Of a stretch of DNA of 64,000 nucleotides, positions 4,854 through 42,720 are shown piece after piece; the stretch's first letter is position 1; the number at the start of each line of letters is the position of its first letter. Made by a program: the position numbers and the translations under genes. The stretch lies in NCBI GenBank assembly GCA_001029775.1, contig CP011215.1, forward strand, positions 554,303 through 618,302, written 5' to 3'. Source of the DNA: Candidatus Campbellbacteria bacterium GW2011_OD1_34_28 (GTDB lineage Bacteria; Patescibacteriota; Minisyncoccia; Phycocordibacterales; UBA12079). The notes under the pieces were generated by a model. It worked only from the letters and a program-made list of their open reading frames with translations, was not told where the DNA came from and did no database searches.

Positions 4854-4861
4854 CAAACTCC

Positions 4862-5158: not shown

Positions 5159-5261
5159 ATTAAAAAAATAAGAGCAAAAATTTGCTCTTATTTTTTTTAT
5201 CCTTATAATTGTTTGTAGAGAAGTAATTCACTAAATAAAAATCAGAAAAGGGACATTTATT

Positions 5262-5537
5262 ATGAGCATGGGAAATATTTTCTTTTTGTTTGTTGCAATC
5301 CAAGATAAAAATCTACTTCCCAAAGTAATGGAAGAAGTAAGCGATTGGGGAGGAGTTAGGGTTGTTGAAACTCACAGACTCGCGGATACAATTATCACTG
5401 ATAACATTAAAAATGACTGGTTTGTGACTCAGGGGGTTAAACAAGTTGTTTTAGTAAATATTCCAGAAGAAGAATATAAAAAGACGGTTAATAAGTGGTC
5501 CCAATGGACTAATATTCATTCTTTAAATTTTATTTAA
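5262..5537 (+). CDS. hypothetical protein
   Basis: 91-aa ORF with backbone AT-rich composition. No recognisable motif. Confidence 0.3.
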   Translation: MSMGNIFFLFVAIQDKNLLPKVMEEVSDWGGVRVVETHRLADTIITDNIKNDWFVTQGVKQVVLVNIPEEEYKKTVNKWSQWTNIHSLNFI

Positions 5538-5602
5538 GAAGTGCCTGAAAAGGCACTTCTTTTTATATTTTTTTAAATGGAAATGATATAATAGTTTTTA
5601 AT

Positions 5603-9908: not shown

Positions 9909-9942
9909 TTTTATAGCTTAATTTAAAGCCTGAGATTTTTTG

Positions 9943-10236
9943 CTATTTATTGAATAATTTTATTGCTTCGTCAAAAGAGTCTCCTTTTATCAGTTTGTTT
10001 CTTCTTTCGTGCCCACACTTTTCACATTTTTGAACAACATAAAATAAGTCGGATTTTTTATCTAATCCTGTTGGTTTCATCATTCCTCCACAGTCGGCCA
10101 ATCTATCTCCTGGATTTATATCAACATGTTTGGACCAAAGGCATTTTGGACAGTGGTTTGTGTATCCATCTCCGATTACTTCTGTTCCGCAATTTTCACA
10201 AACAAAATCTTCTATTGTTCTTGTAAATTTTTTCAT
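9943..10236 (-). CDS. RNHCP-domain zinc-ribbon protein
   Basis: 97 aa. CENCGTE...GYTNHCPKCLWSKHVD...CEKCGH, with the TNHCP motif of the RNHCP family. Confidence 0.55.
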   Translation of the reverse strand: MKKFTRTIEDFVCENCGTEVIGDGYTNHCPKCLWSKHVDINPGDRLADCGGMMKPTGLDKKSDLFYVVQKCEKCGHERRNKLIKGDSFDEAIKLFNK

Positions 10237-12486: not shown

Positions 12487-12561
12487 TGAGCTTATTATAC
12501 AATGCAAAATTTGAAATATGAAAAAAATATGTGAATACCAGCGCTGACGCGCAAGTATCAA

Positions 12562-13518
12562 GGTGTAAGTAGAAAGGTATAAGTAGAAAGGTGTAAGTAG
12601 AAAGGTGTAAGGGTTAAGTCATAAGAAACAAAAAAGTTTTTGACTATAAATATAAAAAATCAAAAATCCGCGGTTTAGCGCGGATTTTTGATTTAATTGT
12701 TTTTGATATCTATAAGCCGAATTCTGTATCCGTCGATTGACGGACGATAATTATTTATCTGGGATCGTTGTTGTCAACAACCTCTAGCGACTCCCCCAGT
12801 CGCTCCTCGCCAAGCTCGTCGCGAATTTTCAATTTTCAAGGTTCAATTTTCATTTGTTAAATGTAAATTGAAAATTGTTAAATGAAAATTCGTTCCGAAC
12901 GCAGTGAGGAACGGCTGGATACGGTCTTGCACTCAGGTAAGGATTTAGCCGTTTCACTTTCTATGTTTCCATAAAAACTAACCCCGAGGGGTTCTTAAAA
13001 TTTTTCAATTTTAAGCGTCTCTGCTCGCACCTCTAAAATCACTTTTGACGGGTGTTACCCGCTACCCTTGTCGCTCCTCGCTTCGCTCGGAGCAAGTAAT
13101 AAGGAGAAAGGCATAAGGAGTAAGTAAAAAATTTGCTCCGCAAATTTTTTCGTTTCTTATTACTTACACCTTACTACTTAATACTTGCGCGCCAGCGCAA
13201 CGAGGAACGACCGAGTGTTCGGACTTTCCTCTTGGTCATTCCTCACTGTGTTCGGAACGAAGAATTAGAATTTAGTATGAGAATTAGGAATTAAATTTGC
13301 AAGGCAAATTTAATTCTAATACTTTTCCCTAATACTTTGTGACGAATAAAGTGAGGAACAACCAAGCAATTATCCAATATCAAAGAACAAAGATATTATA
13401 TAGTACTGCTATTGACAAATCAAGCATTTTTGTTATTTACTCTTGACTAAACAGGGTTTTATATAGTATAGTTATGGGTAGAAATAGTGTCATTTTTTGA
13501 CAAAACAATATAACTTTT
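12562..13518. repeat. about 950-bp ORF-free, repeat-rich region with nested inverted repeats and multiple perfect hairpins (candidate structured ncRNA or MITE-like element)
   Basis: No ORF of 60 aa or more in any frame. Outer inverted repeat cgcgcaagtatcaaggtgtaagtag (12550) pairs with cttacacc...acttgcgcg (13165). Inner inverted repeat gttccgaacgcagtgaggaa (12886) pairs with ttcctcactgtgttcggaac (13237). GAGGAAC motif occurs 3 times. At least 8 short perfect hairpins. Confidence 0.35.
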
Positions 13519-13545
13519 GTGTCCGTTTGGACAAGGAGGAGTGGT

Positions 13546-14682
13546 ATGAAAAATTTTTTCAAGAATGTGTGGAGAAGAAAACCTTCGTCTACACCACCAA
13601 CAACACCTACACCACCTACACCACCTACACCACCTACACCACCATCACTAACACCTACACAGGAACCGGAAAAGGGAAAAAAGTCAATAAAAAGGTTGTA
13701 TACCTTTTTGATCGGGATGGCTTTCAACGCGGGGTTGATTTTTGTGGCGACTATTATCGTCACCAATTTCACCGGCGGTTTCAGTATCCGTGGCATCATT
13801 GCCTCGGTGCTCGTTGACTTGGCAATTCTACTTGTCTTTGGGTGGAATGGAATTCGTGAAATCAAACCAGTGCACATTGGTGTGCCGATGATCTTCGGAG
13901 ATTTGTCGGACTTATTTTTGCTCCCTGGCGGTTATTTCTGGTTACCTCCCAAACCTTTTATGGATTTTGTGGAGGTGTCTTTGAAAGAGAGGACGATGAA
14001 TCCTGACATTAAAGGGATTTTGTCGTCTGACAACAAAACGGCGAGCATCGACGCTCAAATTCAGTTTTTTGTAAGTAACCCGTACATTTACTTGAAAGTG
14101 GATGAACCCGACAAGGCTCTTGAGGGTCTGGTTGGGAGAAATGTCCGATGGCTGGCAAATATGGTGGAGGTCGTAAAACTTCCTGGGGTGAAGGGTCTAT
14201 TTTCCGATCTCTTGGAAGGAACAACTTTGGACAAGATAGTTGGGCATGATTCAACCGACACTGACAGAGTCGTCGCAGAGGCGTTGGCCTTAGGTCTAAT
14301 AAAAGACTCAGCAGAAGATTTTTCAAAAATAAACGTCGGCGGTATCAAAGAAACCGCGGAAGAATGGGGATTGACTATTAAGAAAGCCATGGTGACTGAG
14401 GTGGGAATTCCACAAGAAATCACCAAGGCCAATGCTGAAAAAGATGTTGAGATGGCCCAGGCCAGATCGGAAACTATTCAGCAGGAATTGTTTTGGACAC
14501 TTCTCGGCGGTGGAAATCTGGAGGAAGGAAAAGAGGTTTGGAAGAAGATGGATGGTCCTGAAAGGGCTAAAATAATTCAAGCCGAGAGAAATAAAAGAAC
14601 CGTCATCACGGTTGATGGCAACGCGGGAGATTTCACAAAGGGTGCTGTCGCGGGTGCTCAAATAACCGGAGGTAACCCATGA
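13546..14682 (+). CDS. SPFH/band-7 (stomatin/HflK-like) membrane protein with Pro/Thr-rich linker
   Basis: RBS aggagg plus ATG at 13546. TPPTPPTPP linker encoded by acaccacctac direct repeats. TM segment, then SPFH-like domain. G+C-rich island. Confidence 0.6.
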   Translation: MKNFFKNVWRRKPSSTPPTTPTPPTPPTPPTPPSLTPTQEPEKGKKSIKRLYTFLIGMAFNAGLIFVATIIVTNFTGGFSIRGIIASVLVDLAILLVFGWNGIREIKPVHIGVPMIFGDLSDLFLLPGGYFWLPPKPFMDFVEVSLKERTMNPDIKGILSSDNKTASIDAQIQFFVSNPYIYLKVDEPDKALEGLVGRNVRWLANMVEVVKLPGVKGLFSDLLEGTTLDKIVGHDSTDTDRVVAEALALGLIKDSAEDFSKINVGGIKETAEEWGLTIKKAMVTEVGIPQEITKANAEKDVEMAQARSETIQQELFWTLLGGGNLEEGKEVWKKMDGPERAKIIQAERNKRTVITVDGNAGDFTKGAVAGAQITGGNP

Positions 14683-15158
14683 AAAGAATCAGCTGGGGAT
14701 GGCCCACGACACTTGTCGTTATAGCGGTCATCGTAATTTTGACGGCATCGCTTCCGATGCCGAGTTGCACTAAAAAAGTAAAAGTGGGAGACTCTCCTTC
14801 TGTGACGTCAGGTTCAGAGATTGAGTGGCCTAGAGCGTACAAGGAAACAGTAAATCCGGATCGCGAGGAGTTCGTGTATCCGGGGAAAGACATGTGGCTG
14901 GAGGAGCCGGTATATGTCTCTGGGCTTCACTGGGCGTGGTTCGATTTCGTTGACAAGAACATTAGTGATGATCGAATGTATGTCCGGTGTGCTAATGTTC
15001 CGGAGAATCTGGATAATGCAAAAGTCCGGATGATAAATGCAAATTCAAACCAGGATCCTTTTCCAGGGATTACTGGGTGCAGGTACTTCGACATGAAGTT
15101 ACCTCCAGACACAAGAGTTGGGAATCCTGTAGTATCATTTCGCATCAGCAAGATGTGA
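14679..15158 (+). CDS. lipoprotein-like secreted protein, translationally coupled to the SPFH gene
   Basis: 159 aa. Its ATG overlaps the upstream TGA (ATGA). Signal peptide with Cys (LPMPSC). G+C-rich. Hairpin terminator at about 15165-15210. Confidence 0.5.
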   Translation: MKRISWGWPTTLVVIAVIVILTASLPMPSCTKKVKVGDSPSVTSGSEIEWPRAYKETVNPDREEFVYPGKDMWLEEPVYVSGLHWAWFDFVDKNISDDRMYVRCANVPENLDNAKVRMINANSNQDPFPGITGCRYFDMKLPPDTRVGNPVVSFRISKM

Positions 15159-17890: not shown

Positions 17891-18032
17891 TAGGTATATT
17901 TTACTTGAAATTGCTCTTTTTTAAAACAGATTAAGGGGGATAACGGAACGAAGCATCAAGGGGTAAGGGGTAAGGTGTAAGTATTAAGTAGTGAGTATTA
18001 AGTAGTAAGGGGTAAGTAGACGAGAAATTTGC

Positions 18033-18075
18033 CCTGCCTCTTTTCTGAAAGAAAAGCAACGACACGGCAGGCAGG
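18033..18075. repeat. 43-nt CCTGCC hairpin repeat (other copies 26120-26162, 29280-29318, 56741-56784)
   Basis: cctgcctcttttctgaaagaaaagcaacgacacggcaggcagg. Outer stem cctgcc/ggcagg encloses inner hairpin cttttct/agaaaag. Four near-identical copies in both orientations. Confidence 0.7.
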
Positions 18076-18152
18076 TTTACAAATTTCATTCTTGTCCGTC
18101 TTTGCGAGTGAAACGAAGCAATCCAGGACATTAATATTTTTTAAACAAAAAA

Positions 18153-18177
18153 CTCCCAGCACACAATGTGCCGGGAG
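18153..18177 (-). terminator. conserved cassette terminator T2 (ctcccagcac-N5-gtgctgggag); copies at 25565-25589 and 29397-29421
   Basis: Perfect or near-perfect 10-bp stem followed by a T-run on the minus strand. Three copies, each downstream of a minus-strand cargo gene. Confidence 0.65.
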
Positions 18178-18185
18178 TTTACAAA

Positions 18186-18920
18186 TTATCTTCGCAGGAT
18201 AGCTGTTTTTGCGAGAGAGAAAGATATTCCAGAAAAAACAGGAGCTTTTTGATAAAGAGATACCCCAAAACCCAGCACCGAACTTGTTTCTGCTTTTGTG
18301 AATAAATTCATTCCAATAAGACACACAACATTTCTACGTGCCTCTGAAAAAATGTTAGCCCCTACACAAACACACTGGATATCTTCATATGATTTTAAAA
18401 ACAAGTTAAAACCGCATACAATATAAATATCTTCAAACGCAAACGAAAAAGCATTTAAACCTGTAAAACAAAAAATATCGTTGTTTGAACTTGAAAATAA
18501 ATTAACACCGACAAGGCAAAAAATGTTAGATGCTTTTGAAAACAGATTTAAACCAAAGAAACAAGCAATATTTCCGCCTGCTTCTGAAAAAACATTAAAC
18601 CCCCACAATGTAAAAATATTTTTATGGGCACTCGAAAAAAAATTTAACCCGAAAACGGATTCACAGGAACCATCTTCGGCAACCTGGAAAAAAGATATCA
18701 AAGAATATATGTTTCCCTGTTCGCTCGCTCCCCCAAAAAGAGAAAAGGTTGCTCCAAAAATTTTCCACGGGTATGCCATCAAGAAAAATAACAGTGAAAT
18801 CCACAAACTGACAGTGTGCCCACTCAACCAATAAACAGAATTTGTTAAAATAGCAGAAATGGATCCTGCAAACAACAAATTAATTTCATCTACTTTTAAT
18901 GTAATTTTGGAAGTCCTCAT
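18186..18920 (-). CDS. membrane protein with about nine tandem 16-aa repeats (GxNxFSxAxxNIxCxx; beta-solenoid-like)
   Basis: Likely start MRTSK at 18920. N-terminal TM helices, then repeats encoded by a 48-nt DNA periodicity. Strand chosen by TM segments and the downstream T2 terminator. Reading on the plus strand cannot be fully excluded. Confidence 0.4.
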   Translation of the reverse strand: MRTSKITLKVDEINLLFAGSISAILTNSVYWLSGHTVSLWISLLFFLMAYPWKIFGATFSLFGGASEQGNIYSLISFFQVAEDGSCESVFGLNFFSSAHKNIFTLWGFNVFSEAGGNIACFFGLNLFSKASNIFCLVGVNLFSSSNNDIFCFTGLNAFSFAFEDIYIVCGFNLFLKSYEDIQCVCVGANIFSEARRNVVCLIGMNLFTKAETSSVLGFGVSLYQKAPVFSGISFSLAKTAILRR

Positions 18921-19077
18921 TTGTTTTCCCCTTATTCTGATGTTATTAGTTTCAAAACTACAATTTCTTTGCAAACTATAAACCACAAAAGATATCGAGT
19001 CAATGGCTTGGAAATAAAAGTAAAAAATAAAAAACAGCCTGCTCTAATGCAGGCTGTTTGGGGCGGTTGCTCGCCCG

Positions 19078-19338
19078 TCACCTTCTTCCGCCTCCTCGGT
19101 AACTCTCTCTACCACCGACAAATAATTTTTCGGTGAACTTACAAACAGGGTACATCACCAAACAAAAAATCCAGAGAGGGGTTAAACTTACCATGAAAAT
19201 TAAAAAAAGTACCAATTTTCCGAGAGTGAACATGTCGGCACATATCGCCAACATCACCACAGGTATTGAGTCTCCAGCCCTTACTGAGGCTGATGTGTCT
19301 TCAAAGCACACGTCCTTTATGTATTCTTTTATCTTCAT
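19078..19338 (-). CDS. small membrane protein (GC-rich cargo of family-1 cassette A)
   Basis: 86 aa. RBS ggaga plus ATG at 19338. Two TM helices. Hairpin terminator cagcctgc..gcaggctg at 19030-19062. Confidence 0.5.
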   Translation of the reverse strand: MKIKEYIKDVCFEDTSASVRAGDSIPVVMLAICADMFTLGKLVLFLIFMVSLTPLWIFCLVMYPVCKFTEKLFVGGRESYRGGGRR

Positions 19339-19473
19339 GTTGTCTCCTCATTTGTTTTGCGGACATTTAAGTTTTTCAAAAATTTTTAGGCGTTTTTTTC
19401 AAAACACCCTTATTTCCTATTTGTAATATTAACATAATTAAGCAACATTGTCAATTTATATAATAAAAACAAC
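19339..19473 (-). promoter_or_regulatory. family-1 conserved promoter (TTGACA-17-TAATAT) plus about 85-nt conserved leader; copies at 25949-26078 and 29962-30093
   Basis: Three diverged copies (roughly 85-90 percent identical by eye) of ttgaca..tagtat/taatat..aggaaataagggtgttttgaaa..gcctaaaaa, each ending in RBS plus the ATG of a different ORF. Confidence 0.6.
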
Positions 19474-19502
19474 AAAAAACCGCTTTAAAATAGCGGTTTT
19501 TT
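19474..19502 (-). terminator. conserved cassette terminator T1 (aaaaaaccgc-loop-gcggtttttt); copies at 26079-26107 and 30094-30122
   Basis: Bidirectional hairpin with A/T runs. It lies between the stop of an unrelated housekeeping gene (gyrA, pth, sigma-r4 gene) and the family-1 promoter. Confidence 0.65.
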
Positions 19503-19545
19503 GTATGTTGGGGTCTATTTTCTTACTCCTTAAACCTTACACCTA

Positions 19546-22032
19546 TTATAGGCAGGTAAGCGATGCAATCTTGTCACCTTCTCTCATTTTCATTATTCTT
19601 ACCCCCTGTGTCTGTCTGCCCAATGATGGGATTTCTGAAACATCTACTCTGATCACTTGTGCATTTTTTGAGATAGCAACAATTTCTTGTTGTTTTTCCG
19701 TCAGTACTTTTGATGTAATCAAATTTCCTGTTTTGTCGGTGATTTTCATTGTCTTGATTCCCGATCCTCCCCTCTTTTGAATTTTGTATTCTTTGAGAGA
19801 AGTTTTCTTTCCGTATCCATTTCCGCTCATAACAAAGAAATCTGGATTCACATAATCTTTTTTGATGATATTTCCTCCAACAACAAAATCTCCTTTTCCA
19901 AGTTTCATTCCGGTCACTCCTCCCGCCCCTCTTCCCATTTCTCTAACATCGCTTTCTTTAAAGCGAATAGATTGTCCTTTACTGCTGGTCAAAATAATAG
20001 TATCTCCTTTATCAACAAAACGAGCGGTTATCAATTCGTCTTTGTCTTGCAATTTTATAGCAATCAAACCGTTTCTTCTTACATCATGAAAGTTTTTAGC
20101 GGCTACCTTTTTTGTAACTCCAGCCTTTGTAACCATCAACAGAGAAATATTGTTCTGTTTTTCATCTTTTGGCATTGGTAAAATAGAAGTAACTCTTTCT
20201 TCTGCTTCCAATTGCAAAAAATTCATAATAGATTTTCCTCTTGTTGCTCTTTTTCCTTCTGGAATATCGTACATCTTTATTTGGTAAGCTTTTCCTTTGT
20301 CGCTAAAGAACAACAAATCACTGTGTGTGCTTGTTGTCAAAAATGTAGTAACAAAGTCTTCTTCTTTGGCTTTTAGGTCTACTACGCCCACCCCGCCTCT
20401 TTTTTGTCTCTTGTATTCGTCAGGGTTGGTTCTCTTTATATATCCTCCAGATGTATAAACCAAAACACTCTCTTCTTCGGGGATTAAATCTTCAACAGAA
20501 ATAGATTTAACACCTGTATTAACAACTTTGGTTCTTCTGTCGTCTCCATATTTTTCAGAAATTTCAACAAGTTCTTTTTTGATAACTTCCAATATTTTTT
20601 TAGGACTCTTCAAAAGTTCGCGCAATTCTTTTATCAAAGATTGTACCTCTTTCAATTCGTCTTCAATTTTCTTTCTCTCCAGTCCTGCCAATTTTTGCAA
20701 CTTCATTTCCAAAATAGCATGAGCTTGTCTATCGCTAAATTTGAATTCTTTCATCAAATTTAAATGAGCAGTTGCAGTGTCTTTGGATGCTTTAATCGTT
20801 TTGATTATCTGATCAATATGATCTAGGGCTTTCTTTAATCCTAGCAAAATATGCTCTCTGTCTTCTGCTTTTCTTAGATCAAATTGAGTTCTTCTAACAA
20901 CAACATCTTGTCTGTGTTTGATAAATTCTTCCAAGACGCTTTTCAGCGCCATTGTTTGAGGAACACCATCAACCAATACAACAAGGTTCATATGGAAGGT
21001 ATCTTCCAATTGAGTGTGTTTATAAATATAATTTAATATTTTTTGAGGATGGGTACCCGATTTTAGATCAATAACAACTCGGATATCTCTTGTTGATTCG
21101 TCTCTCAATCCCTTTATGCCCTCTATTTTTTTATCTCTGTGAAGCTCGGCTATTTTAACAATCAAATCTGCCTTGTTTACTCTGAAAGGAAGTGAAGTAA
21201 TGATAATCTGAAAATTGTCGGCTTTGTTTTCTACTATCTCTGCATTTCCACGACAAATAATACCGCCTCTTCCAGTGGCATAAGCGTGAGCAATTGCTTT
21301 TTCATCAAAAATCATTCCACCCAAAGGAAAATCTGGTCCTTTCACGAAACCAAGAAGGTCTTCGGTTGTAGCATCGGTATTGTCTATTAAGTGAACTGTT
21401 GCATCAACTACCTCTCTCAAGTTATGAGGGGGAATATTGGTTGCCATACCAACAGCAATACCAAGTGTTCCATTTAAAAGGATATTTGGAACAGCAGACG
21501 GCAAGACAGTTGGTTCTTTGGTTGTCCCATCATAGTTTGGTCTAAAATCAACGGTGTTTTTTTCAATGTCTCTCAACAACTCGTTTGAAAGTTTTGACAT
21601 CTTTGCTTCGGTGTACCTCATCGCTGCTGGAGAGTCTCCGTCTATTGAACCAAAGTTTCCTTGTCCTAATACCAAAGGATATCTCATTGTAAAGTCTTGA
21701 GTCATCTTTACCATAGAGTCGTAAACAGCCACATCACCGTGAGGGTGGTATTTTCCCAATACGTCTCCGACTACGGCAGCAGATTTTCTAAATTTTGCAG
21801 ATGATGTCAAACCCATGCCACTCATTGTGTAAAGGATTCTCCTGTGAACTGGTTTCAATCCGTCTCTTACATCAGGCAAAGCACGATCGGTAATAACAGA
21901 CATGGCATAATCCAAAAAACTACTCTCCATTTGAGAGCTGATATTTTCTGTGATGATACCTTTTTCTGTCACGATATCTTTTGGAATTTCTTTTTCGTTA
22001 TTTGAATTGTCCTTTTCTTCTTTTTTTGCCAT
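19546..22032 (-). CDS. gyrA: DNA gyrase subunit A
   Basis: 828 aa. [26 protein letters not shown] active-site region. C-terminal beta-pinwheel with a GyrA-box-like QKRGGSG. Confidence 0.85.
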
Positions 22033-22179
22033 GTTTTAAATTAGTTTTTAGTCGTTAGTTATTAGTTTTTAATTATCAAAACCAGTTTATTGTTTATAGA
22101 TTCTAAAGACTATAAACTATCACCTAATAACTACGAAATTATATCACAAAACAAAATTAATTTCCTTATCAAAAAGTCG

Positions 22180-22425
22180 TTATTTTAAGTCTATCTGTTG
22201 ATAAATTCCACCAAAATCATCCCATATTTTTAACACAAAAACCTTCATTTCTTGAATTGAATTGTTACCATATTCTTTCTTTCTTTTATTATCTTCAAAA
22301 AAATAATTTAAAATTATGGCAATCAAAATTATCCCTATCATTGTAAAGACTGTATAGGTAAAAAGAAGAGATCTTTTTTCTTCTTCTGGCTTGTTTCTTA
22401 TTTTTGTTAAGAAATCACCGGACAT
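22180..22425 (-). CDS. small membrane hypothetical protein
   Basis: 81-aa ORF with one TM helix. Confidence 0.35.
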   Translation of the reverse strand: MSGDFLTKIRNKPEEEKRSLLFTYTVFTMIGIILIAIILNYFFEDNKRKKEYGNNSIQEMKVFVLKIWDDFGGIYQQIDLK

Positions 22426-22436
22426 ATTAAAAAATA

Positions 22437-23078
22437 TTATACTTCTGAATTTAAAACAATTATTTCACCGTCTCTGCCTTCCAGATCTTTCTTCTTGATA
22501 GTCAATTTGTCTACAGGCTTAACATTTTCTTCTCCCCCCTCTTTCAAAAACTTTTTCAGAGCATCCTTTTCTCCAACATCACCATAATGCATTGGAATAA
22601 TTATTTTTGCTCCCAATTTGGTTGCTAGTTTGTGGGCATCACTTGCGTTTAATACCCCATCACCTCCGATAGGAGTAAATAATACCTCTACATCGCCTAA
22701 AACAGATTTCGCATTTTCTCCTAATTCTATTGAATCCAAAGCACCAAGAAAACCAATTTTTATTCCGTCCAATGTCAAAGAATAGACAGTATTGATTCTG
22801 CTCTTGCCTTTGTATTGAGTATTATAAAAAACTCCTCTTATAAAAATTCCTTTGATTTCATATTCTCCTGGACCAGAAATAACAAAAGGTTCTTTGTTTT
22901 TTGAAGAAACACTTTCTACCCCGTTCAAGTCAACACTGTTTGCTGTGATAATGGCAATATCAGCACCGAATCGAGGGCCTTTAAATTTTGAATCTTTGGA
23001 AATTGGATTAAAAGCGATGACTATGTCGCCAAATTGAACTTTAAAAAATTCTATATTGTGGTATGTGATTATCATAGG
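22437..23078 (-). CDS. MBL-fold metallo-hydrolase-like protein
   Basis: Start moved to MIITYHN because the track N-terminus runs through the palindromic repeat 23112-23211. Beta-lactamase-fold-like motifs (HYGDV). Confidence 0.5.
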   Translation of the reverse strand, partial: PMIITYHNIEFFKVQFGDIVIAFNPISKDSKFKGPRFGADIAIITANSVDLNGVESVSSKNKEPFVISGPGEYEIKGIFIRGVFYNTQYKGKSRINTVYSLTLDGIKIGFLGALDSIELGENAKSVLGDVEVLFTPIGGDGVLNASDAHKLATKLGAKIIIPMHYGDVGEKDALKKFLKEGGEENVKPVDKLTIKKKDLEGRDGEIIVLNSEV

Positions 23079-23111
23079 TTGGATTATATCATACTTTAGA
23101 ATTACGAAATT

Positions 23112-23211
23112 GTGGATTGCTTCACTTCGTTCGCAAATTTCCCGCCTTTGTCGTCTTTGCGAAATTTCGTCTTCCCCGTCGTCTTTGCGAGCCGAAGGCG
23201 AAGCAATCCAC
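23112..23211. repeat. palindromic dimer of the GGATTGCTTCG...CTCGCAAAGACG element
   Basis: gtggattgcttc...ttcgcaaa...cgtctttgcgaa...cgtctttgcgagccgaaggcgaagcaatccac. Half-copies at 15232-15267, 18091-18129, 52985-53013, 58388-58416. Confidence 0.6.
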
Positions 23212-23447
23212 GTCGTCCGTGCTATCAGCTGTAAGCTATCGGCTATCAGCTTCTTCAATGCTATCAGCTTTTTGAACTTTTGACTTTTGTCTTATTATAT
23301 ATATACTTAACTACAGCCAGAAACGGCTTTATTTTTTATTAATCGAATTATAAGTTAACCCTATTTAAAAAAGCGGTAAGGCGCGAAAAGATTATAGATT
23401 AAGCCTTATTTTGCTGGTAAATAGTACTTTTAATTCAAAAAATCAAA

Positions 23448-24563
23448 ATGACAAAAAAGGATGTTAATCCAGAAGTAGAGGTATCTACTAATGAAGAAGT
23501 GAAAAAAGACGGTATAATGACCGCTTTGATCGAAAAAACCCCTACTCTTCCTGCTATAGGAGAGCTAATCGAGGGAAAAGTTATAGGTATTGAAAAGAAT
23601 GGTGTTTTTATAGATTTGCCACCATTTGGTACAGGTATAATTTATGGAAAAGAACTTATAAGTGTTCGTGATGTAATCAAAAATTTGAACATCGGGGATA
23701 CTGTTGATGCAAAGATTGTTGATGTTGAAAACGAAGACGGTTATGTTGAATTGTCTTTGAAAGAAGCTAGACAAGCTCTTGTTTGGACAGAAGCTGAAAA
23801 AGCAATGAAAGAAAAACAAGTTCTTGAATTGTCTATCAAAGAAGCAAACAAAGGAGGTCTTCTTATCAACTGGCAAGGAATCTCAGGATTTCTTCCTGCT
23901 TCACAACTAAGCAGTGAAAATTATCCAAGAGTAGCAGACGGAGATAAAGACAAGATCTTGGAAGAATTGAAAAAAATGGTTGGTTCAAAAATCGCTGTTC
24001 AAATTATCGGCGTTGAACCAAAAGAAGGAAAATTAATCTTCTCAGAGAAAAATATAAATCAAGGAGAGAGAGAAGAAGTTATTCAAAAATACAATGTTGG
24101 AGATGAAATGGAAGGAGAAGTTACTGGTATTGTTGATTTCGGAATCTTTATCAAATTGGATGGAAACATTGAAGGTTTGGTACACATTTCAGAAATAAGC
24201 TGGTCACTTGTTGAAAATCCAAGAGAATTGTTCAAGATTGGAGAAAAAGTAAAGGTGAAAATTATAGAAATAGTAGATGGAAAGATTTCACTATCTATCA
24301 AAGCTTTGAAAGAAAATCCTTGGAAAAGTGCAGAAAGAAAATTCAAGAAGGGCGATGAGGTTGAAGCTGTGGTTATCAAATTCAACAAACACGGCGCTTT
24401 GGCAAGTATAGAAGAGGGTGTAGCTGGACTTGTTCACATTTCAGAATTTGAAAGTAGTGAAGAAAAATTGAAAGAGGCTTTGCAACTAGGCAAAAACTAT
24501 AAATTCAAAATCAATGTCTTTGAACCAAAAGATCAAAAAATGACATTGTCTTTAGTTAAATAA
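23448..24563 (+). CDS. rpsA: 30S ribosomal protein S1
   Basis: 371 aa with four S1 RNA-binding repeats. Hairpin terminator acagggac..gtccctgt follows. Confidence 0.8.
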   Translation: MTKKDVNPEVEVSTNEEVKKDGIMTALIEKTPTLPAIGELIEGKVIGIEKNGVFIDLPPFGTGIIYGKELISVRDVIKNLNIGDTVDAKIVDVENEDGYVELSLKEARQALVWTEAEKAMKEKQVLELSIKEANKGGLLINWQGISGFLPASQLSSENYPRVADGDKDKILEELKKMVGSKIAVQIIGVEPKEGKLIFSEKNINQGEREEVIQKYNVGDEMEGEVTGIVDFGIFIKLDGNIEGLVHISEISWSLVENPRELFKIGEKVKVKIIEIVDGKISLSIKALKENPWKSAERKFKKGDEVEAVVIKFNKHGALASIEEGVAGLVHISEFESSEEKLKEALQLGKNYKFKINVFEPKDQKMTLSLVK

Positions 24564-24701
24564 ATTTAACTAAAGAAAAAAACAAAAAACAGGGACTCAC
24601 CGTCCCTGTTTTTTGTTTTTAATTGACTTATTTTATTTAAATAAATATACTCAGGACAGATTTTAGGATGTTCTCGCTATACAAAATAGAAGGAGGAAAA
24701 A

Positions 24702-25493
24702 ATGAATAGTGAAGGTCGTTTTATTAGTATTACGGATTTTACTTGCCCTGAGCAGGTAAATTCTATGTTGGAATTAAGAAAAAAACTCAACAGCAAAATC
24801 CTTTTGGGCGTTGGAGTTATGATGAGTTATAAAACACTTCACGGATTCCCAACAAAATGGTCAAAATCTTTTCCAGAAAACAAAGATATTCCGTCTATTT
24901 TTATGGACAAAGAGGGTGTTTTTAATGTTTTACATTATGCGGATCAAAACAATGATTCATGTTGGGAAGATTTTTGGGCAGGGCTTGGTTATGCGGGTCC
25001 AAATGTTCATGCGATCCAGTTTGATATGACATGGCCACACCCTAACGATGTCCATTATGTAATTAGTAGCATGAAAGAAGAGGGGGCTCTTGTCGAAGTA
25101 ATTATACAAGTTGGACGAAAATCTTTTTTACAGGCAGGAAATACACCCAAAGGAATTATAAAAAGATTATCAGAATATTATTACAGAAACTGTTTGGGCT
25201 ATGTTCTTTTGGATAAAAGTATGGGCGAAGGGAAAATACTCAACCCTCACGAACTAATTCCTTTTATAGATGCGATTTACCAAAAGTGGCCAAATATTAA
25301 AATTGTTGTAGCGGGTGGTCTCGGTCCAGAAACAATTTCCACTGTGGAACCAATTTTGGACCTTTATCCCGTAAGTCTTTGTGCTCAATCCAGATTACGC
25401 CCCAGTTTTAATGCTTTAGACCCCATTGATTGGGATATGGCACAGGAATATTGGAAAAAAGCCGATGCTCTTTTTAAAAAATACGAAAAGTAA
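24702..25493 (+). CDS. TIM-barrel-like protein (weak PRAI/TrpF-like pattern)
   Basis: 263 aa. C-terminal IVVAGGLGPETI resembles the phosphate-binding loop of PRAI-type barrels. Weak. Confidence 0.3.
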   Translation: MNSEGRFISITDFTCPEQVNSMLELRKKLNSKILLGVGVMMSYKTLHGFPTKWSKSFPENKDIPSIFMDKEGVFNVLHYADQNNDSCWEDFWAGLGYAGPNVHAIQFDMTWPHPNDVHYVISSMKEEGALVEVIIQVGRKSFLQAGNTPKGIIKRLSEYYYRNCLGYVLLDKSMGEGKILNPHELIPFIDAIYQKWPNIKIVVAGGLGPETISTVEPILDLYPVSLCAQSRLRPSFNALDPIDWDMAQEYWKKADALFKKYEK

Positions 25494-25589
25494 TTTTTTC
25501 ACTTTAAAACCCCAGTAGCAGCAAGGCTATTGGGGTTTTGTTTAAAATTGAAAAAATAAAAAACTCCCAGCACGTGGTGTGCTGGGAGC

Positions 25590-25681
25590 AAAGTGTCAAT
25601 TTTGTCTCGGTTTTTAACTAACCGGAGGAATCTGCTTTCCTTGGGCTCTCCATTTTTTAAAAACGGGGACAAAATTTGTTG
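25590..25681 (-). promoter_or_regulatory. conserved 3' element of family-1 cassettes (copy 2 at 29422-29514)
   Basis: About 85 nt (gagtgtcaattttgtctcggttttt.actaaccggaggaatctgctttcctt.ggctctccatttttt) between the cargo stop codon and T2. Near-identical in two cassettes with unrelated ORFs. Confidence 0.55.
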
Positions 25682-25948
25682 TTACGGCAACTTCACCGTA
25701 ATCAACAGATTGCTAGGTATCGCTTCACACGGCACAGTCGACAGTGAAGCTATCTTCGCAAAACCCACCCACGTCTGATAGATAGCAAAGCACAAGCCTG
25801 TTCGTGGATCTTTCGTATACTGAATTCGTGCGACAGTATTGGTGACTTCTTTTATTATTGTATCTTCTTCCGTCGTCGCCGATGACGTTCCGAAGCCGAG
25901 AACCATAGCTACCAACGTAACGCAAATCATCATGGAAATCTTTTTCAT
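25682..25948 (-). CDS. small secreted protein (GC-rich cargo of family-1 cassette B)
   Basis: 88 aa. RBS aggagaagg plus ATG at 25948. Signal peptide MKKISMMICVTLVAMVLGFGTSSA. G+C-rich. Confidence 0.5.
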   Translation of the reverse strand: MKKISMMICVTLVAMVLGFGTSSATTEEDTIIKEVTNTVARIQYTKDPRTGLCFAIYQTWVGFAKIASLSTVPCEAIPSNLLITVKLP

Positions 25949-26185
25949 ACCTTCTCCTTCAATTGAATGACTTTTTTGTATTTCAATTTTTAGGCGTCTC
26001 TTTCAAAACACCCTTATTTCCTATTCATAATACTAACATAATTAAACAATACTGTCAATCTTTCTAACCAAAACAACCAAAAAACCGCTTAAAAATAGCG
26101 GTTTTTTGTGTTTCTAAAACCTGCCTCTTTTCTGAAAGAAAAGCAACGACACGGCAGGCAGGACTAAAAACTGACAACTAAAAAC

Positions 26186-26770
26186 TCAATTAAACTCGTT
26201 CATTGCTTTGTCTCTTCCCTCTTTTACAATCATTTCCAAAGCAATATTTATTTTTTTGCTTATCTTTTTTAAGACATCCATCTCAGGTTTTTTAAAGTCT
26301 TTCATTATCAAATTTAAAACCTTTTCTTCTCCTTTTGGTTTTTTCAGTTTACCCGTAGGGGTAGTAGGACAAATACCAATTCTAATTCTTGCAAATTCTT
26401 TTGTCTTGATTGTTTTCACGATTGATTCCAATCCATTGTGTCCACCTGTTCCCCTATTAAAAGATATTTTAAAATCACCTAGTCCAAGATCCAAATCGTC
26501 GTACATCACAATCAAATTTTCCGCATTATCTTTGTTAATTAAATCTTTCACACTCAAACCAGATTTATTCATAAATGTTTCCGGTTTTAAAAGAATCACA
26601 TTTTCTTTATCAATCTTTCCTTCTGATATCAAGGATTTATATTTTTTATTTTCATTCCAATCAGAAAAATCGTTACTTTTTGCAAAATAATCCAACATAA
26701 TTCTGCCTGTATTATGTCTCGTCATCTCATATTCTTTTCCCGGATTTCCTAGTCCAACGATTATGTACAT
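26186..26770 (-). CDS. pth: peptidyl-tRNA hydrolase
   Basis: Start at MYIIVGLGNPGKEYEMTRHNTGRIMLDYFAK, the Pth signature. Confidence 0.8.
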   Translation of the reverse strand: MYIIVGLGNPGKEYEMTRHNTGRIMLDYFAKSNDFSDWNENKKYKSLISEGKIDKENVILLKPETFMNKSGLSVKDLINKDNAENLIVMYDDLDLGLGDFKISFNRGTGGHNGLESIVKTIKTKEFARIRIGICPTTPTGKLKKPKGEEKVLNLIMKDFKKPEMDVLKKISKKINIALEMIVKEGRDKAMNEFN

Positions 26771-26872
26771 AAATATTAGTATAAAGTAGTAAGGATTAAG
26801 TAACAAGTAGAACGGGTCGACTTCGTCAACGCTGTTAGCTATCAGCTGTCCACTGTGAGCTTCGTCCGTGAA

Positions 26873-27913
26873 TCAGTCCATATACAATTTCTTATTCAAC
26901 AAATGATCTTTGTAATTTGTTGCATAATAAAGATTTCCTCTTCTGTCTGAAAGATAGTACAAATAATCATTTTCAATTGGTTCAATCGCAGCTAAAATAG
27001 AGTTGAGACCCGGATTAGTTATTGGTCCTGGAGGCAAACCTTTGTATTTATAAGTATTATAAGGAGAATCGTGCTTTAAATCAGTCAAATTTACTTCGTA
27101 TGTGTTTTTACCGATTATATAGGGAAAAACAGCATCAACCTGTAAAGGCATATCTATTTCAATTCTATTCCATAAAATACCAGAGACCATTTTTCTTGTT
27201 TTAACAGTTCTCGCTTCTTCTTCTATGAGAGATGCCATAATTATTATGTCCGAAAGGCTTTTATCTGATTTTGATATTTTTTCTTGAATTTCTGTCATTT
27301 TTGAATAAAAATTTATCTCCATTGCTCTCAAAACATCAATCGCGGTTATGTTTGGTAAAAATTGATATGTATCAGGAAACAAATATCCTTCCAAATTATT
27401 TTCTTCGGCCAGTCTTACAAATTCATCTGGATTAAATTTGCTAAATTTTTTAGCAATGACAACAGACATCTCTTTTACAGTTAGTCCTTCGTAGAGGGTT
27501 ACTTTCATAGGATCCATACCGAAATCGCCGTTTACCAATGCAATTGCCGTCCCGAAAGCGTCTTTTTTTTCTTCAAAAAAATAATCTCCGGCGATTATAC
27601 TTTTTTCACCACCTAGTGCTCTAACAGTTATTTCAAAAAAAGATTTTGATTTTATAACCCTTTTATCTTTTAGTTCTTTTGAAATATCTCTCAAAGTATC
27701 TCCACTTTCAATATGAATAATAGAAGCAAGTGGAAAAGACTGTGGAGCATTGATAAACAAAAAATATACTGAATAAAGAAAAATTAAACACAAAAAAAAC
27801 AACTCCCATATAAGAGAACTATTTTCGCTTAAAAATTCCCGAGTTATTTTAGGCTTGGGAATTTTTTTGTCAGCGAAAAAATTTCTTGGATTGTAATTTT
27901 GAAAATTAAGCAT
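26873..27913 (-). CDS. mltG: endolytic murein transglycosylase MltG (YceG family)
   Basis: 346 aa. N-terminal TM, then a YceG-like domain. Confidence 0.65.
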   Translation of the reverse strand: MLNFQNYNPRNFFADKKIPKPKITREFLSENSSLIWELFFLCLIFLYSVYFLFINAPQSFPLASIIHIESGDTLRDISKELKDKRVIKSKSFFEITVRALGGEKSIIAGDYFFEEKKDAFGTAIALVNGDFGMDPMKVTLYEGLTVKEMSVVIAKKFSKFNPDEFVRLAEENNLEGYLFPDTYQFLPNITAIDVLRAMEINFYSKMTEIQEKISKSDKSLSDIIIMASLIEEEARTVKTRKMVSGILWNRIEIDMPLQVDAVFPYIIGKNTYEVNLTDLKHDSPYNTYKYKGLPPGPITNPGLNSILAAIEPIENDYLYYLSDRRGNLYYATNYKDHLLNKKLYMD

Positions 27914-27940
27914 AAGCTAGATAGCAAATTTAACTTTTTA

Positions 27941-29239
27941 TTAAAAAGGTAAATTTGCAGGTGGTTCTGACTTTTTAGATTCAATTCTTGAGAAAGTTGG
28001 TGTTTCAACAGACTTGCTTGGTAGATGGAATATTGTTGCTAATTCCTCCGAACTTAAAACAAATTGTTTGTCACTGGTGTGAGGATAGTAAAAATAAGCT
28101 CTTTTTTTGTAATCATTGAATATCTCGTTTTTCATTTTGTTTAAGCGAGTATTCTTGTAATCTTGCCAAGGATAATCAAAGCCAGTTACCCTATTTGGTC
28201 TGAAACCGTTCATATTCCCTGAGTTATATTGTTTAAAAGACCCTGTCATCCCTGTAATATTTATTGGGTTAAATTTGTCTTTTTCGGCAATATAAATCCC
28301 CCTGATACCACAGTCAAAACCGGGTTTAGTAATGTTTCTTTCAACGGCTTCAATTATTTGTGACTCTACTTTTGTTGGTGGACGATTTTTTGTTTTATCT
28401 TTTTCATCAGTCACAAGATTTGCCAACAATTTTTTCTTTTCATCTTTTCCTTTTTCTGTCCAATCATAGCTATCAGACCACTGCATCTTTTCAAAGCGAT
28501 CTTTCCACGCCAATTCTTTTCTAAAATTTTTCTTGTGAGCGCGAACCATTATCTGAATCCATATCTGTTCGCCTTTTCCAATTGCGCCAAGAAATTCAAG
28601 AACTGGTGACATTGGATCAATTTTTTCTTCATCCTCTATACCAGGTCTATCCAAGCCGTAGTCAATATAAGTTTTTATTGGGTATGGATCGTCTTTTGTT
28701 AGAATAAATTCGTTTCCCCACAAACTCATATTGCTTAAATCAAGGGCAGTAAATTTTGTATAATCTGGTACTTCAAAGATCTCTACTCCTGGATATTGTG
28801 CATACAACTGAGATTCTAATAATTTTTTAAACTTTGCTTCTGTCCAGATAAAAAATCTTACATTTCCTTCCAAGGAAACCATTTCCAAAGAAAACCATGT
28901 TCTGCTTTTTCCCAGAATACTTCTGTCATACCAAGTTCCTTCTCCTCCGGGTTGATGCAAAGCACCCAAAAACAATTCCATTGCCAACGGACTCTTTTTT
29001 ATCTCTTTAGGAACTCTTATTTCCATTAAGATTCTATTTTGCATAGCTCTAAATAAAAATCTTTTATAATTTCTTCTAAATTTTAATGCGAGAGACAATA
29101 AAATAAAAGGTATGACAAAAGGTGATATTGTATATAAAACAAACAACACATCAATAACGAGTGGTTGAAGGAAGTGAGGAAATTTGGCAACAAAATTTTC
29201 TAACATTTGCTTATATTTTACAACAAAAAAAGTAACCAA
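27941..29239 (-). CDS. membrane-anchored hypothetical protein
   Basis: 432 aa. N-terminal TM helices. No recognisable catalytic motif. Confidence 0.4.
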   Translation of the reverse strand: MVTFFVVKYKQMLENFVAKFPHFLQPLVIDVLFVLYTISPFVIPFILLSLALKFRRNYKRFLFRAMQNRILMEIRVPKEIKKSPLAMELFLGALHQPGGEGTWYDRSILGKSRTWFSLEMVSLEGNVRFFIWTEAKFKKLLESQLYAQYPGVEIFEVPDYTKFTALDLSNMSLWGNEFILTKDDPYPIKTYIDYGLDRPGIEDEEKIDPMSPVLEFLGAIGKGEQIWIQIMVRAHKKNFRKELAWKDRFEKMQWSDSYDWTEKGKDEKKKLLANLVTDEKDKTKNRPPTKVESQIIEAVERNITKPGFDCGIRGIYIAEKDKFNPINITGMTGSFKQYNSGNMNGFRPNRVTGFDYPWQDYKNTRLNKMKNEIFNDYKKRAYFYYPHTSDKQFVLSSEELATIFHLPSKSVETPTFSRIESKKSEPPANLPF

Positions 29240-29514
29240 ACAATAAAATTAGTGGACAAAAAACATACCAATATACGAACCTGCCTGCCGTGTCGTTGCT
29301 TTTCTTTCAGAAAAGAGGTAGATGATGCGAATAATACGAATGCAATACAAATACAAACTTTACAAACACTGATGTTATTTTTTTAGTAATAAAAAACTCC
29401 CAGCACGCAATGTGCTGGGAGCGGAGTGTCAATTTTGTCTCGGTTTTTGACTAACCGGAGGAATCTGCTTTCCTTAGGCTCTCCATTTTTTAAAAATGGG
29501 GAAAAAAATTTTAT

Positions 29515-29961
29515 TTAATATTCTACTCCGAGGAAATAATCATCCTCGTTCCAGCTCCCATAAGCCCACTCGAGAAAAACCCCTTTCCCTTGGCTGTTGC
29601 TTTCAAACAACGTCGGCACATGCTTGGTTTTTTCTATTGAACACATCGAACCGAGTGCTGTTACTGAGAAAGGCTTTTGTAAAATTCTTTGGTTTATCCC
29701 GAAAGATAAAATCTCGTGGATAGTCGCTGGTCGACAACCCTCCCTGCTCATCCCAGAAAGAGTTTCGGTAATCCTCATACTCTTCCCGAAACAAAAAACC
29801 ACCAATTTCCTTTCTTCCACCTTCCCGTTCTTGGGACGAGGAAATTTTTCGAAGTGCCCCCTCCCTTGGGGGTATTTCTTGATGAGGTCATAGATAAGGC
29901 CGGGCACTTCCTGCGTTTCGTCAACAGGAACAACAAGCCGGTACTTTATATTAGTATTCAT
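29515..29961 (-). CDS. hypothetical cytoplasmic protein (GC-rich cargo of family-1 cassette C)
   Basis: 148 aa. RBS aaggagaagg plus ATG at 29961. G+C-rich. Bounded by the conserved leader and the conserved 3' element plus T2. Confidence 0.5.
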   Translation of the reverse strand: MNTNIKYRLVVPVDETQEVPGLIYDLIKKYPQGRGHFEKFPRPKNGKVEERKLVVFCFGKSMRITETLSGMSREGCRPATIHEILSFGINQRILQKPFSVTALGSMCSIEKTKHVPTLFESNSQGKGVFLEWAYGSWNEDDYFLGVEY

Positions 29962-30157
29962 AACCTTCTCCTTGTCCGCTTTGCGAACTTTTGTATTTCA
30001 ATTTTTAGGCGTTTCTTTCAAAACACCCTTATTTCCTACCTATGATATTAACATAATTAAACAGCACTGTCAATCTCTGTAACTAAAACAAGCAAAAAAC
30101 CGCTTATTTTAAGCGGTTTTTTGTTGTACTTTATAACTTTACAAACTTTAAGAACTT

Positions 30158-42371: not shown

Positions 42372-42573
42372 TTATTTTCCTTTTCTGCCGGCATTTGGTC
42401 CGATATGAATTTCCTTTACCGAACCAGAAGGTTTGTCGATTTTGACAATGTCGTGAGAATGAGGACGGTCTTCCGAAGAAATTCTTTCGGTTTTATGATT
42501 GTCCCCAGAATCAGTAACCTTCATTTTTGACCCATCATCACTGTTTCCACTGAACCACCCCATCTTTCTATCT
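42372..42573 (-). CDS. small hydrophilic Gly/Ser/Asp-rich protein (GC-rich cargo, family-2 leader)
   Basis: Start MGWFSG at 42573 with RBS ggaga. 66 aa. G+C-rich. Confidence 0.45.
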
Positions 42574-42720
42574 CCAAATAGCCAATGGATTTTCGGGCAA
42601 CATTGCCCAAGAACTAATTTGTTAAAATAGTAACATAAAAACAAAATAAATCAACGATTTTGTGTAGTCTTTTCAACATCCATTTTTGAAGATTTTGGGG
42701 TATTAGTTTTTGTATTTTGA
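42574..42720 (-). promoter_or_regulatory. family-2 conserved promoter plus leader (copy 2 at 45194-45345)
   Basis: About 110 nt near-identical in both copies: cccaagaactaattt.ttaaaatagtaaca.aaa.acaaa.taaatcaacgattttgtgtagtcttttcaacatccatttttgaagattttggggtat. Each ends with RBS plus the ATG of an unrelated G+C-rich ORF. Confidence 0.55.

Follow-up and report, generated by a model that had tools for sequence, protein, structure and literature searches.

The closest described parallel to the elements reported here comes from T4-type phages, in which promoter-early stem-loops (PeSLs), repeated units of a terminator stem-loop and a sigma-70 promoter, stand upstream of orphan genes in variable regions (Arbiol et al. 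2010, PMC2839356; Comeau et al. 2014, PMC4122927; these two papers are our sources for the comparisons with PeSLs). Recombination at PeSLs accounts for insertions, deletions and replacements between phages that are ~96% identical, among them cases in which a single PeSL has taken the place of a cassette lying between two PeSLs (PMC2839356; PMC4122927). We describe three units that bear comparison with these in a chromosome of Campbellbacteria (Paceibacterota, Candidate Phyla Radiation, CPR), all located in a stretch of 64,000 nucleotides (contig CP011215.1, positions 554,303 to 618,302; hereafter the window). Each presents a small open reading frame (ORF), its cargo, behind one copy of a ~165-nt 5' module that runs from a terminator hairpin, T1, through a promoter to a leader; the three copies are called family 1. 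We think it on balance, and by a little, probable that these are insulated units which express strain-variable accessory genes and are assembled from portable regulatory modules that are prone to recombination and would be analogous to the PeSLs of phages.

The three 5' modules all lie on the minus strand within 11 kb, the units being separated by 4-6.6 kb and each having its own promoter (Table 1). An earlier, sequence-only reading of this DNA had seen one scaffold at the three loci, homologous though diverged, and the alignments bear this out for the 5' side. Global alignment by segment gives 78-82% identity for the three pairs of 5' modules, compared with ~51% for shuffled sequences, and repeat finding retrieves the scaffold at 19370-19505, 25974-26109 and 29989-30124 (ungapped identity 74-88%). 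Pattern searches of the window, with up to three mismatches allowed and dinucleotide-preserving shuffles as the control, find a 39-nt leader core, T1 and the terminator T2 exactly three times each; the shuffles give 0 matches. The similarity begins abruptly at the A-tract of T1, spans the promoter, its 17-nt spacer and ~60 nt of transcript, and then fades gradually into a variable second hairpin that is followed by a strong Shine-Dalgarno sequence (GGAG). Within the leader a 23-nt core is invariant. The 60 nt outside the units are at shuffle level (45-52%), with one of the six pairs, at 0.61, above the shuffle maximum of 0.54. The promoters read TTGACA-17-TAATAT or TAGTAT with TG ahead of the -10 box (an extended -10), each scoring 10/12 in a consensus scan, and T1, a hairpin with A- and T-tracts, scores as a terminator on both strands. 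The modules share a common descent; the genes that they front are unrelated to one another and atypical for their surroundings. As had been noticed, each unit follows a different housekeeping gene: gyrA at site 1, pth at site 2 and a Sigma70_r4/HARE-HTH gene at site 3.

The cargo ORFs encode proteins of 86, 88 and 148 amino acids. Their DNA, compared in pairs, is 43-50% identical, about the same as shuffled sequences, and the Smith-Waterman scores of the proteins fall under the shuffle mean, so that the earlier description of the three as mutually unrelated holds within the window. They are also visibly richer in G+C than the genome, as had been claimed: G+C content at third codon positions (GC3) is 45-51% (overall GC 41-45%) versus 23-31% in 11 neighboring genes. 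The codon bias of highly expressed genes was ruled out as the source of this excess, with GC3 of only 18-27% in the ribosomal protein genes of the window. Cargo 1 has no match in Pfam, PHROG or NCBIfam, and is confined to the site 1 context in 12 contigs. Cargo 2 belongs to a small CPR family of ~83-116 amino acids with a signal- or lipoprotein-type N-terminus, two conserved cysteines and the motif DPRTGLCFA..VPCEAIP; three homologues in other CPR genomes are solitary genes with their own TTGACA promoters and terminators, and are GC-richer than their hosts (0.44-0.56 versus 0.37-0.41). Cargo 3 appeared to be an orphan in a word-indexed search, which a full phmmer scan overturned: the exhaustive scan collects 381 representatives of its family, in some of which the domain is repeated up to 17 times. 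The AlphaFold2 model of cargo 3 is confident (pLDDT 92.8) and its Foldseek matches are weak; the family has a predicted C-type-lectin-like (CTLD) fold. One of its homologues, in another AT-rich CPR contig, has a GC content of 0.48 versus 0.31 in the rest of that contig. A target of a diversity-generating retroelement, considered for cargo 3 on account of the CTLD fold, was rejected, as there is no reverse transcriptase among the neighboring genes and no repeat of the 3' end of cargo 3 in the window; the site 3 alleles of different strains differ along their whole length. In function the three products are probably envelope or partner-interaction proteins, namely a protein with two transmembrane (TM) segments, a secreted protein with two cysteines and a binder of C-type-lectin fold.

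The sequence-only reading had placed a conserved 3' element and the T2 terminator at every locus. This stands for copies 2 and 3, which share a 130-nt 3' module (25555-25684 and 29388-29517) composed of S3, a multi-hairpin 3' untranslated region (UTR), and T2, at 90% identity versus ~48% for shuffled sequences. It does not stand for copy 1, the 3' end of which is 32-38% identical to those of copies 2 or 3 (shuffled, ~32%) and which closes with the unrelated terminator X. Repeat finding places the T2 hairpin family at 18131-18177, 25542-25588 and 29375-29421, and the first of these closes a second transcription unit at site 1, with its own promoter and an ORF of 244 amino acids. Because this third T2 follows the second ORF, unit 1 is better drawn as 19505-18150, with the 244-aa unit included. 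The 244-aa product is internally repetitive (G[LV]N[LF]FS) and its gene is of ordinary composition (GC3 28%).

Comparison with relatives reveals which parts of the units change. The close strains have core DNA 94-99% identical to that of the window (loci L010-L017 and L028, RIFCSPLOWO2-type), and one further species is ~88% identical (locus L003, Paceibacterota STC_102). At site 2 the cassette is unchanged in the close strains, with 100% identity for the cargo and for S3 and 98% for the 5' module. At site 3 the window and L010 are homologous up to the very 3' end of T1 (window 30087) and again from 29230, just ahead of the DUF8128 gene. In between, L010 has a module of another type, type B, with a longer spacer, TTGACA and a leader that retains UAGGAAAUA, a hairpin whose basal helix is the same, the UAAAAUUUGAAA tract, and then another hairpin ahead of a Shine-Dalgarno sequence; an ORF of 145 amino acids and a different terminator, terminator Y (AACCCGTTGAATCTTT..AAGATTCAACGGGTT), follow. 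On a profile of the cargo 3 family made without the window protein, the 148-aa protein of the window scores with E 3e-36 and the 145-aa protein of L010 with E 3e-22. Since both score, the window and L010 hold divergent alleles of one family, and the phrase "completely unrelated", apt among the three window cassettes, does not carry over to the two strain alleles of site 3.

At site 1, L010 (18505-18625) presents a variant of T1, T1' (AAAAAATCGCT..AGCGATTTTTT), in the stem of which a C-G pair has become U-A, a compensatory change, followed by a type B spacer and -35 box that are ~90% like those of L010 site 3. The T2 hairpin stands 13 nt past this -35 box, and the 86-aa gene, the -10 box and the leader are all absent. 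In L010 and L013 a 120-nt stub takes the place of 505 nt, and cargo 1 is missing from both strains; the neighboring 244-aa unit is kept at 92-97% in L010-L013. A search of relatives for empty scaffolds, which the sequence-only reading had proposed, accordingly finds one. The ~88%-identical species has yet another allele at site 3. Its contig begins in the 3' end of an rve-type transposase (recognized by the motif YNxxRPHxxLGYxTP, read directly from the sequence) that replaces T1 and ends 11 nt before the -35 box (L003 1-131); then come TTGACA-17-TAGTAT, a leader variant, a 121-aa ORF and S3+T2, the last being 93% identical versus 87% in the adjacent core genes. Two short motifs had raised the suspicion that the 121-aa ORF is a diverged orthologue of cargo 3, which hidden Markov model (HMM) and hhalign comparisons reject (BLASTP E 0.38 against the family, no HMM match, hhalign probability 0.2). 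Window, L003 and L010 together show different cargo between homologous flanks at one orthologous site. Site 2 of L003 has no cassette after pth. Between pth and the S1 gene lie instead a P-loop ORF and a small ORF (4770-5680), a pair that replaces both cassette 2 and a 263-aa ORF; the P-loop ORF looks zeta-toxin-like by eye. The L003 contig breaks off in T1 directly behind gyrA. In more distant relatives (MltG 39-59% identical) no scaffold similarity is seen.

Strains thus differ by replacement and deletion of cassettes with breakpoints at hairpin and module edges, and the modules vary independently of the cargo. A 5' module of the window type (A) goes with cargo 1 and terminator X at window site 1, with cargo 2 and S3/T2 at site 2 of both the window and L010, and with cargo 3a and S3/T2 at window site 3. 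Type B goes, as a stub, with no cargo and T2 at L010 site 1, and with cargo 3b and terminator Y at L010 site 3. In L003 the leader variant of site 3 is joined to an unrelated ORF and S3/T2, and in another CPR genome (L032) a homologue of cargo 3 lies between an unrelated promoter and a terminator 82% identical to Y. From these combinations it follows that 5' modules, cargo and 3' modules assort independently, which is a signature of recombination among modules. As a separate observation, the terminator after the cargo 3 homologues (L010 7925-7975; L032 ~964-1028) is, at 82% versus ~68% for the alignable coding sequence, better conserved than its gene, which is unusual. L010 also carries extra small genes at two junctions where the core genes of the window are direct neighbors: a PDDEXK_3 gene separates lepA from the Sigma70_r4 gene, and a 23S_rRNA_IVP gene separates DUF8128 from mltG (5735-6142 and 9589-9960). 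In addition, several of its intergenic spacers differ by indels of 100-170 nt; intergenic plasticity is therefore general in the species.

Both UTRs fold into hairpins. In the ~85-nt 5' UTR the order is UAGGAAAUA, a GNRA-capped hairpin (HP1), an A-rich tract, the second hairpin and the strong Shine-Dalgarno sequence. HP1 (GGGUGUUUU-GAAA-RRRACGCCU) folds in all three copies; the leader segments of copies 2 and 3 have a folding z of about -3.7, that of copy 1 one of -1.5. Its six basal pairs are paired in five of five sequence variants, with one position occurring as G-C, C-G and U-A and two others showing wobble changes; in a slid-partner control the paired fraction drops from 83% to 31-49%. 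The second hairpin, just before the Shine-Dalgarno sequence, occurs in three variants of differing sequence and is less consistent. S3 folds as a UUUUGUC/GACAAAA helix around up to three hairpins, followed by T2 (z about -5). Nearly all variable columns among its three copies fall in loops or junctions; two changes break a pair, and one is a G.U/A-U switch, which is compatible with pairing in RNA and not in DNA. At the gathering score Rfam 15 recognizes only a tRNA in the whole window, and neither the leader nor S3 matches a family; when cassettes 2 and 3 are scanned permissively, all scores stay below threshold (at most 33 bits versus thresholds of 39-120) and fall mostly on terminator hairpins, the best being ncr952 over the S3/T2 module at 32.8 bits versus 100. 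A small ORF within S3 (MES[PLQ]RKADSSG) was rejected: it has no ribosome-binding site, and its sole variable codon alters the amino acid. In public collections the S3 core is found in the same strains and, as two 21-nt matches, in GC-rich soil contigs, which we treat as chance. The 21-nt stretch, AAGGAAAGCAGATTCCTCCGG, is exact in L030 134-154 and L031 87-107 (metagenome contigs of 56-60% GC), where it sits in REP-like repeats that also hold '..cggaatgacaa..', with an imperfect inverted copy as well in L030; these matches are probably fortuitous, aided by a high-copy repeat family.

Set beside the PeSLs, family 1 shows in all three copies the same composite, in which a terminator stem-loop is joined to a strong promoter of sigma-70 type and a Shine-Dalgarno sequence directly before small genes of unknown function. 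PeSL motifs bound insertions, deletions and replacements, and phage relatives ~96% identical differ by loss of a cassette that leaves a single fused motif; similarly, sites 1 and 3 of family 1 differ among strains of 94-99% identity while site 2 is unchanged. There are also differences. Family 1 lies between housekeeping genes of a CPR chromosome and not in phage hyperplastic regions, it has three copies and not ~50, its stem-loop stands ~20-32 nt upstream of the -35 box, and its module is longer, with a conserved structured 5' UTR and a separate shared 3' UTR module. PeSLs act as early promoters, and mini-circles arising by recombination between the motifs are described for them, as is promoter and terminator activity; in family 1 such activity is predicted. 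Residence in a phage finds no support: a set of 50,697 phage records gives 0 blastn or tblastn matches, and the PHROG scores are marginal and non-significant (E at least 0.02).

Phage morons are another relevant design. A moron is an inserted promoter-ORF-terminator unit; in related lambdoid phages the genes on either side of it are direct neighbors. The 86-aa unit resembles one in being autonomous, in having a composition unlike its flanks and in being present or absent (after gyrA) between otherwise collinear relatives. Family 1 units differ from morons in that they lie outside any prophage between core chromosomal flanks, that an upstream insulating terminator is part of the unit, and that their regulatory flanks are mutually homologous, which those of morons generally are not. 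By this analogy family 1 would carry the logic of phage regulatory cassettes and morons into a CPR chromosome, with a conserved structured 5' UTR and a shared 3' UTR module added.

In the reading that we favor, T1 would act as a bidirectional intrinsic terminator that blocks read-through from the upstream housekeeping gene, the near-consensus sigma-70 promoter with its extended -10 would begin a new transcript, the ~85-nt 5' UTR would set mRNA stability and translation, and the 3' module (S3 and T2) or another terminator may close the unit. The modules, being patches of near identity of 40-165 nt across neighboring intergenic sites, would serve as preferred crossover points, at which homologous or short-homology recombination would swap, replace or delete cargo and modules and generate combinatorial strain mosaics. 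The promoter and terminator activities and an RNA-level role of the hairpins are predictions, and we infer a causal role of the modules in the exchanges, as opposed to simple association. Several observations weigh against this. The copy number is only three in the 84 kb scanned, all inside 11 kb. The sequence-only reading had proposed a search for more: a covariance model of promoter plus leader, run on the window, on 20 kb of additional flanking DNA and on more distant relatives, detects no further copy and gives only weak promoter-like matches before other GC-rich ORFs. An exact-pattern scan for the leader core gives 0 matches in genome, metagenome and viral contig collections, and no copy of the module is found beyond this species group in the public collections. 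No case of the same cargo at two different sites is seen. The covariation in HP1, over five sequences, is statistically not strong, as 38 of 500 shuffles attain the observed score. Homologues of the cargo elsewhere are also GC-rich and have no family 1 scaffold, so that composition is a property of the gene families rather than of the scaffold, and the GC excess is not simple evidence of a recent GC-rich donor. Finally, the right-hand breakpoint of site 3 lies in the core flank and not in a module, and ordinary allelic replacement via flanking homology can therefore explain that event. This breakpoint also suits the main rival explanation, in which one promoter-leader (and 3' UTR) was duplicated locally and kept for co-expression, as passive paralogous regulatory DNA or a small regulon; a common factor would bind the leader hairpin or S3, and the strain differences would be ordinary horizontal transfer or allelic replacement in which the modules take no part. 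To this possibility we give a substantial minority of our belief. In its favor are the small number and the clustering of the copies, the stability of cassette 2 across strains, and the invariant 23-nt leader core and the helices of S3, which appear selected for function. Yet the similarity covers the promoter spacer, the T1 stem and non-functional linkers, which points to recent common descent or gene conversion and not to constraint on motifs; the left breakpoint of site 3 falls exactly at the end of T1, the site 1 allele of L010 is a module-to-module fusion, and 5' and 3' modules combine independently of cargo.

The earlier suggestion of a gene-capture or gene-display system would require, in its dedicated form, a recombinase encoded elsewhere that uses T1, S3 or the 43-nt CCTGCC hairpin repeat as an att-like site. 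The units do have sharp boundaries and adjoining hairpin repeats, an empty scaffold exists in L010, and S3 is a conserved, imperfect multi-hairpin of attC-like length; integron cassettes, too, are small, mostly single-ORF, diverse and often unknown in function, strain-variable and furnished with a structured conserved 3' element. We nonetheless think such a system very improbable. No integrase, transposase or reverse transcriptase was found among the window genes around the cassettes (16-33 kb, all housekeeping genes or unknown small ORFs) or the other proteins scanned (Pfam scans and precomputed Pfam calls; the rest of the genome was unscanned). S3 is missing from copy 1 and from the L010 site 3 allele and present in two of three window units, no GTTRRRY/RYYYAAC cores are seen by inspection, no att-like core or direct-repeat scars are seen at the units, the G.U/A-U switch of S3 speaks for RNA pairing, and the CCTGCC hairpins vary independently of the cassettes. 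An integron proper is rejected, as the sequence-only reading had it, with no IntI, attI, attC or Pc promoter found in the DNA examined around the cassettes: the units are not arrayed but scattered among core genes, each with a promoter of its own. The same reading had set aside miniature inverted-repeat transposable elements (MITEs), and that identity is rejected too, the copies being three, clustered and without terminal repeats. The related idea of a non-autonomous mobile element (MITE-like, or REP-like in the manner of Correia elements), carrying an outward promoter and a terminator and landing before pre-existing genes, has in our view a slighter chance still. Correia elements of Neisseria and the enterobacterial repetitive extragenic palindromic (REP), bacterial interspersed mosaic (BIME) and repetitive intergenic consensus (ERIC) sequences have terminal inverted repeats or palindromic units and high copy numbers. 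Family 1 shares with them the nature of short repeated intergenic DNA whose hairpins may terminate or initiate transcription and serve as recombination substrates; its 5' edge is sharp, exactly at T1, and other small intergenic repeats and inserted selfish genes abound in the genome. It lacks their palindromic units and high copy number, no terminal inverted repeats or target-site duplications occur at module or cassette ends (only internal terminator hairpins and complementarity of A- and T-tracts), and its 3' edge fades into the variable second hairpin and Shine-Dalgarno sequence. An assembly artefact, with chimeric GC-rich inserts in a metagenome-assembled genome, might be suspected from the odd composition of the inserts and is effectively refuted: the window is 100% identical to contig DNLU01000003.1 of GCA_003489565.1, and the cargo genes recur with identical sequences in 12-24 contigs, many of 0.2 to over 1 Mb, from independent assemblies of different samples (NCBI, JGI, ENA, Logan). 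The original observation is thus largely correct, and its interpretation as gene capture only partly supported.

Table 1. Positions of the family 1 units and of other features in the window.
Feature	Position	Strand	Details
5' module, copy 1	19339..19505	-	T1 19474-19502; promoter from -35 at 19454 to -10 end at 19426; HP1 19388-19409; Shine-Dalgarno GAGGAG
5' module, copy 2	25949..26109	-	T1 26079-26107; promoter 26058-26030; HP1 25992-26013; Shine-Dalgarno GGAGAAGG
5' module, copy 3	29962..30124	-	T1 30094-30122; promoter 30073-30045; HP1 30007-30028; second hairpin GUUCGC-AAA-GCGGAC; Shine-Dalgarno AAGGAG
Cargo 1	19078..19338	-	86-aa ORF with two hydrophobic segments (2-TM); GC 41%, GC3 45%
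Cargo 2	25682..25948	-	88-aa ORF, N-terminal signal-like segment, two conserved Cys; GC 45%, GC3 51%
Cargo 3	29515..29961	-	148-aa ORF, no signal peptide, large uncharacterised family; GC 45%, GC3 50%
Terminator X (cargo 1)	19032..19059	-	AAACAGCCTGC-attaga-GCAGGCTGTTT and T-run; unrelated to T2
S3 + T2, copy 2	25555..25681	-	Multi-hairpin 3' UTR inside UUUUGUC/GACAAAA helix; T2 terminator 25564-25588
S3 + T2, copy 3	29388..29514	-	T2 terminator 29397-29421; 90% to copy 2, 93% to L003 copy
Second transcription unit, site 1	18186..19003	-	Promoter TTGACT-17-TATAGT 19003-18975; 244-aa ORF 18186-18920
Third T2-type hairpin	18150..18180	-	Hairpin 18153-18177; CTCCCGGCAC..GTGCTGGGAG; closes the 244-aa unit
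CCTGCC hairpin	18033..18075	-	78 nt beyond T2 of unit 1
CCTGCC hairpin	26120..26162	-	12 nt upstream of T1 of copy 2
CCTGCC hairpin	29280..29322	+	Inverted; 75 nt beyond T2 of copy 3
CCTGCC hairpin	56742-56784		Adjoins no cassette
Further GC-rich ORF sites	1130-1483, 4287-4853, 13519-15158, 53899-54767, 62065-62277, 63556-63990		
7-nt motif runs	12539-12639, 13141-13178, 17937-18023, 26749-26812, 51385-51422, 58259-58296, ~19520-19545		Last run just after gyrA stop

The window otherwise holds gyrA, pth, lepA, mltG, aminoacyl-tRNA synthetases and ribosomal protein genes, and among these AT-rich core genes stand about 10 more GC-rich (44-56%) small ORFs or ORF pairs. A promoter-like motif of the TTGACA type precedes every one whose upstream sequence is available, and a terminator-like hairpin follows most of them; the ORF at 13546-14682 encodes an SPFH/Band_7 protein. 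A second family of 5' modules occurs on the minus strand at 42594-42709 and 45225-45340 (93% identical), with TTGATT-17-TACTAT and a leader hairpin GUUCUUGGGCRAURUUGCCCG, and fronts two unrelated GC-rich small ORFs, one of 63 amino acids (~42430-42620) and one a 69-aa DUF397 protein (~44985-45193; Pfam E 2.5e-15), a family known mainly from Actinobacteria; the pattern is therefore shared by more than family 1. A third pair of repeated flanks (59776-59864/62375-62463 on the 5' side, 83%; 60619-60694/62850-62925 in the terminator region, 96%) encloses ORFs that look paralogous by eye, their N-termini having 'W-P-(K/E)-R-W ... W-x-K-W'; if paralogous, this pair would be an ordinary duplication, in contrast to family 1.

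The CCTGCC hairpin has four copies in the window, where shuffles predict none. It had been described as lying just outside every cassette, which is so for copies 2 and 3; at copy 1 it lies outside the larger unit 19505-18150 and not at 19030. The hairpin is strain-variable: L010 has none at sites 1 and 3, and has one at 14811-14847, in the interval from the S1 gene to the metallo-beta-lactamase gene, which is free of it in the window. A 7-nt periodic motif (..GGTGTAAG TAGAAAG GTATAAG..) also recurs in runs within intergenic spacers, in several cases directly behind a stop codon.

The units described here give a concrete, testable picture of accessory-gene flux between nearly identical strains of CPR bacteria, whose genomes are tiny and streamlined and whose gene regulation, gain and loss are very poorly understood. 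They point to a second use of composite regulatory modules, as recombination substrates, outside phages. They also provide two candidate structured RNA elements absent from Rfam and, as apparent strong native promoter, UTR and terminator parts, may be of use for genetics in this group. Strain-variable secreted, membrane and C-type-lectin-fold proteins are of the type expected for contact with partner organisms or phages, and the GC excess of the cargo families is consistent across several AT-rich CPR genomes. A bolder possibility, which we regard as unlikely, is that CPR bacteria practice an integrase-free exchange of cassettes, the cellular counterpart of PeSL shuffling, in which the 5' and 3' UTR modules would be portable homology arms that move a circulating pool of GC-rich small genes for envelope or partner-interaction proteins into and out of intergenic sites of core genes, possibly via excised circles. 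In that case the cargo genes would be under the control of two new structured RNA elements, the leader hairpin and S3.

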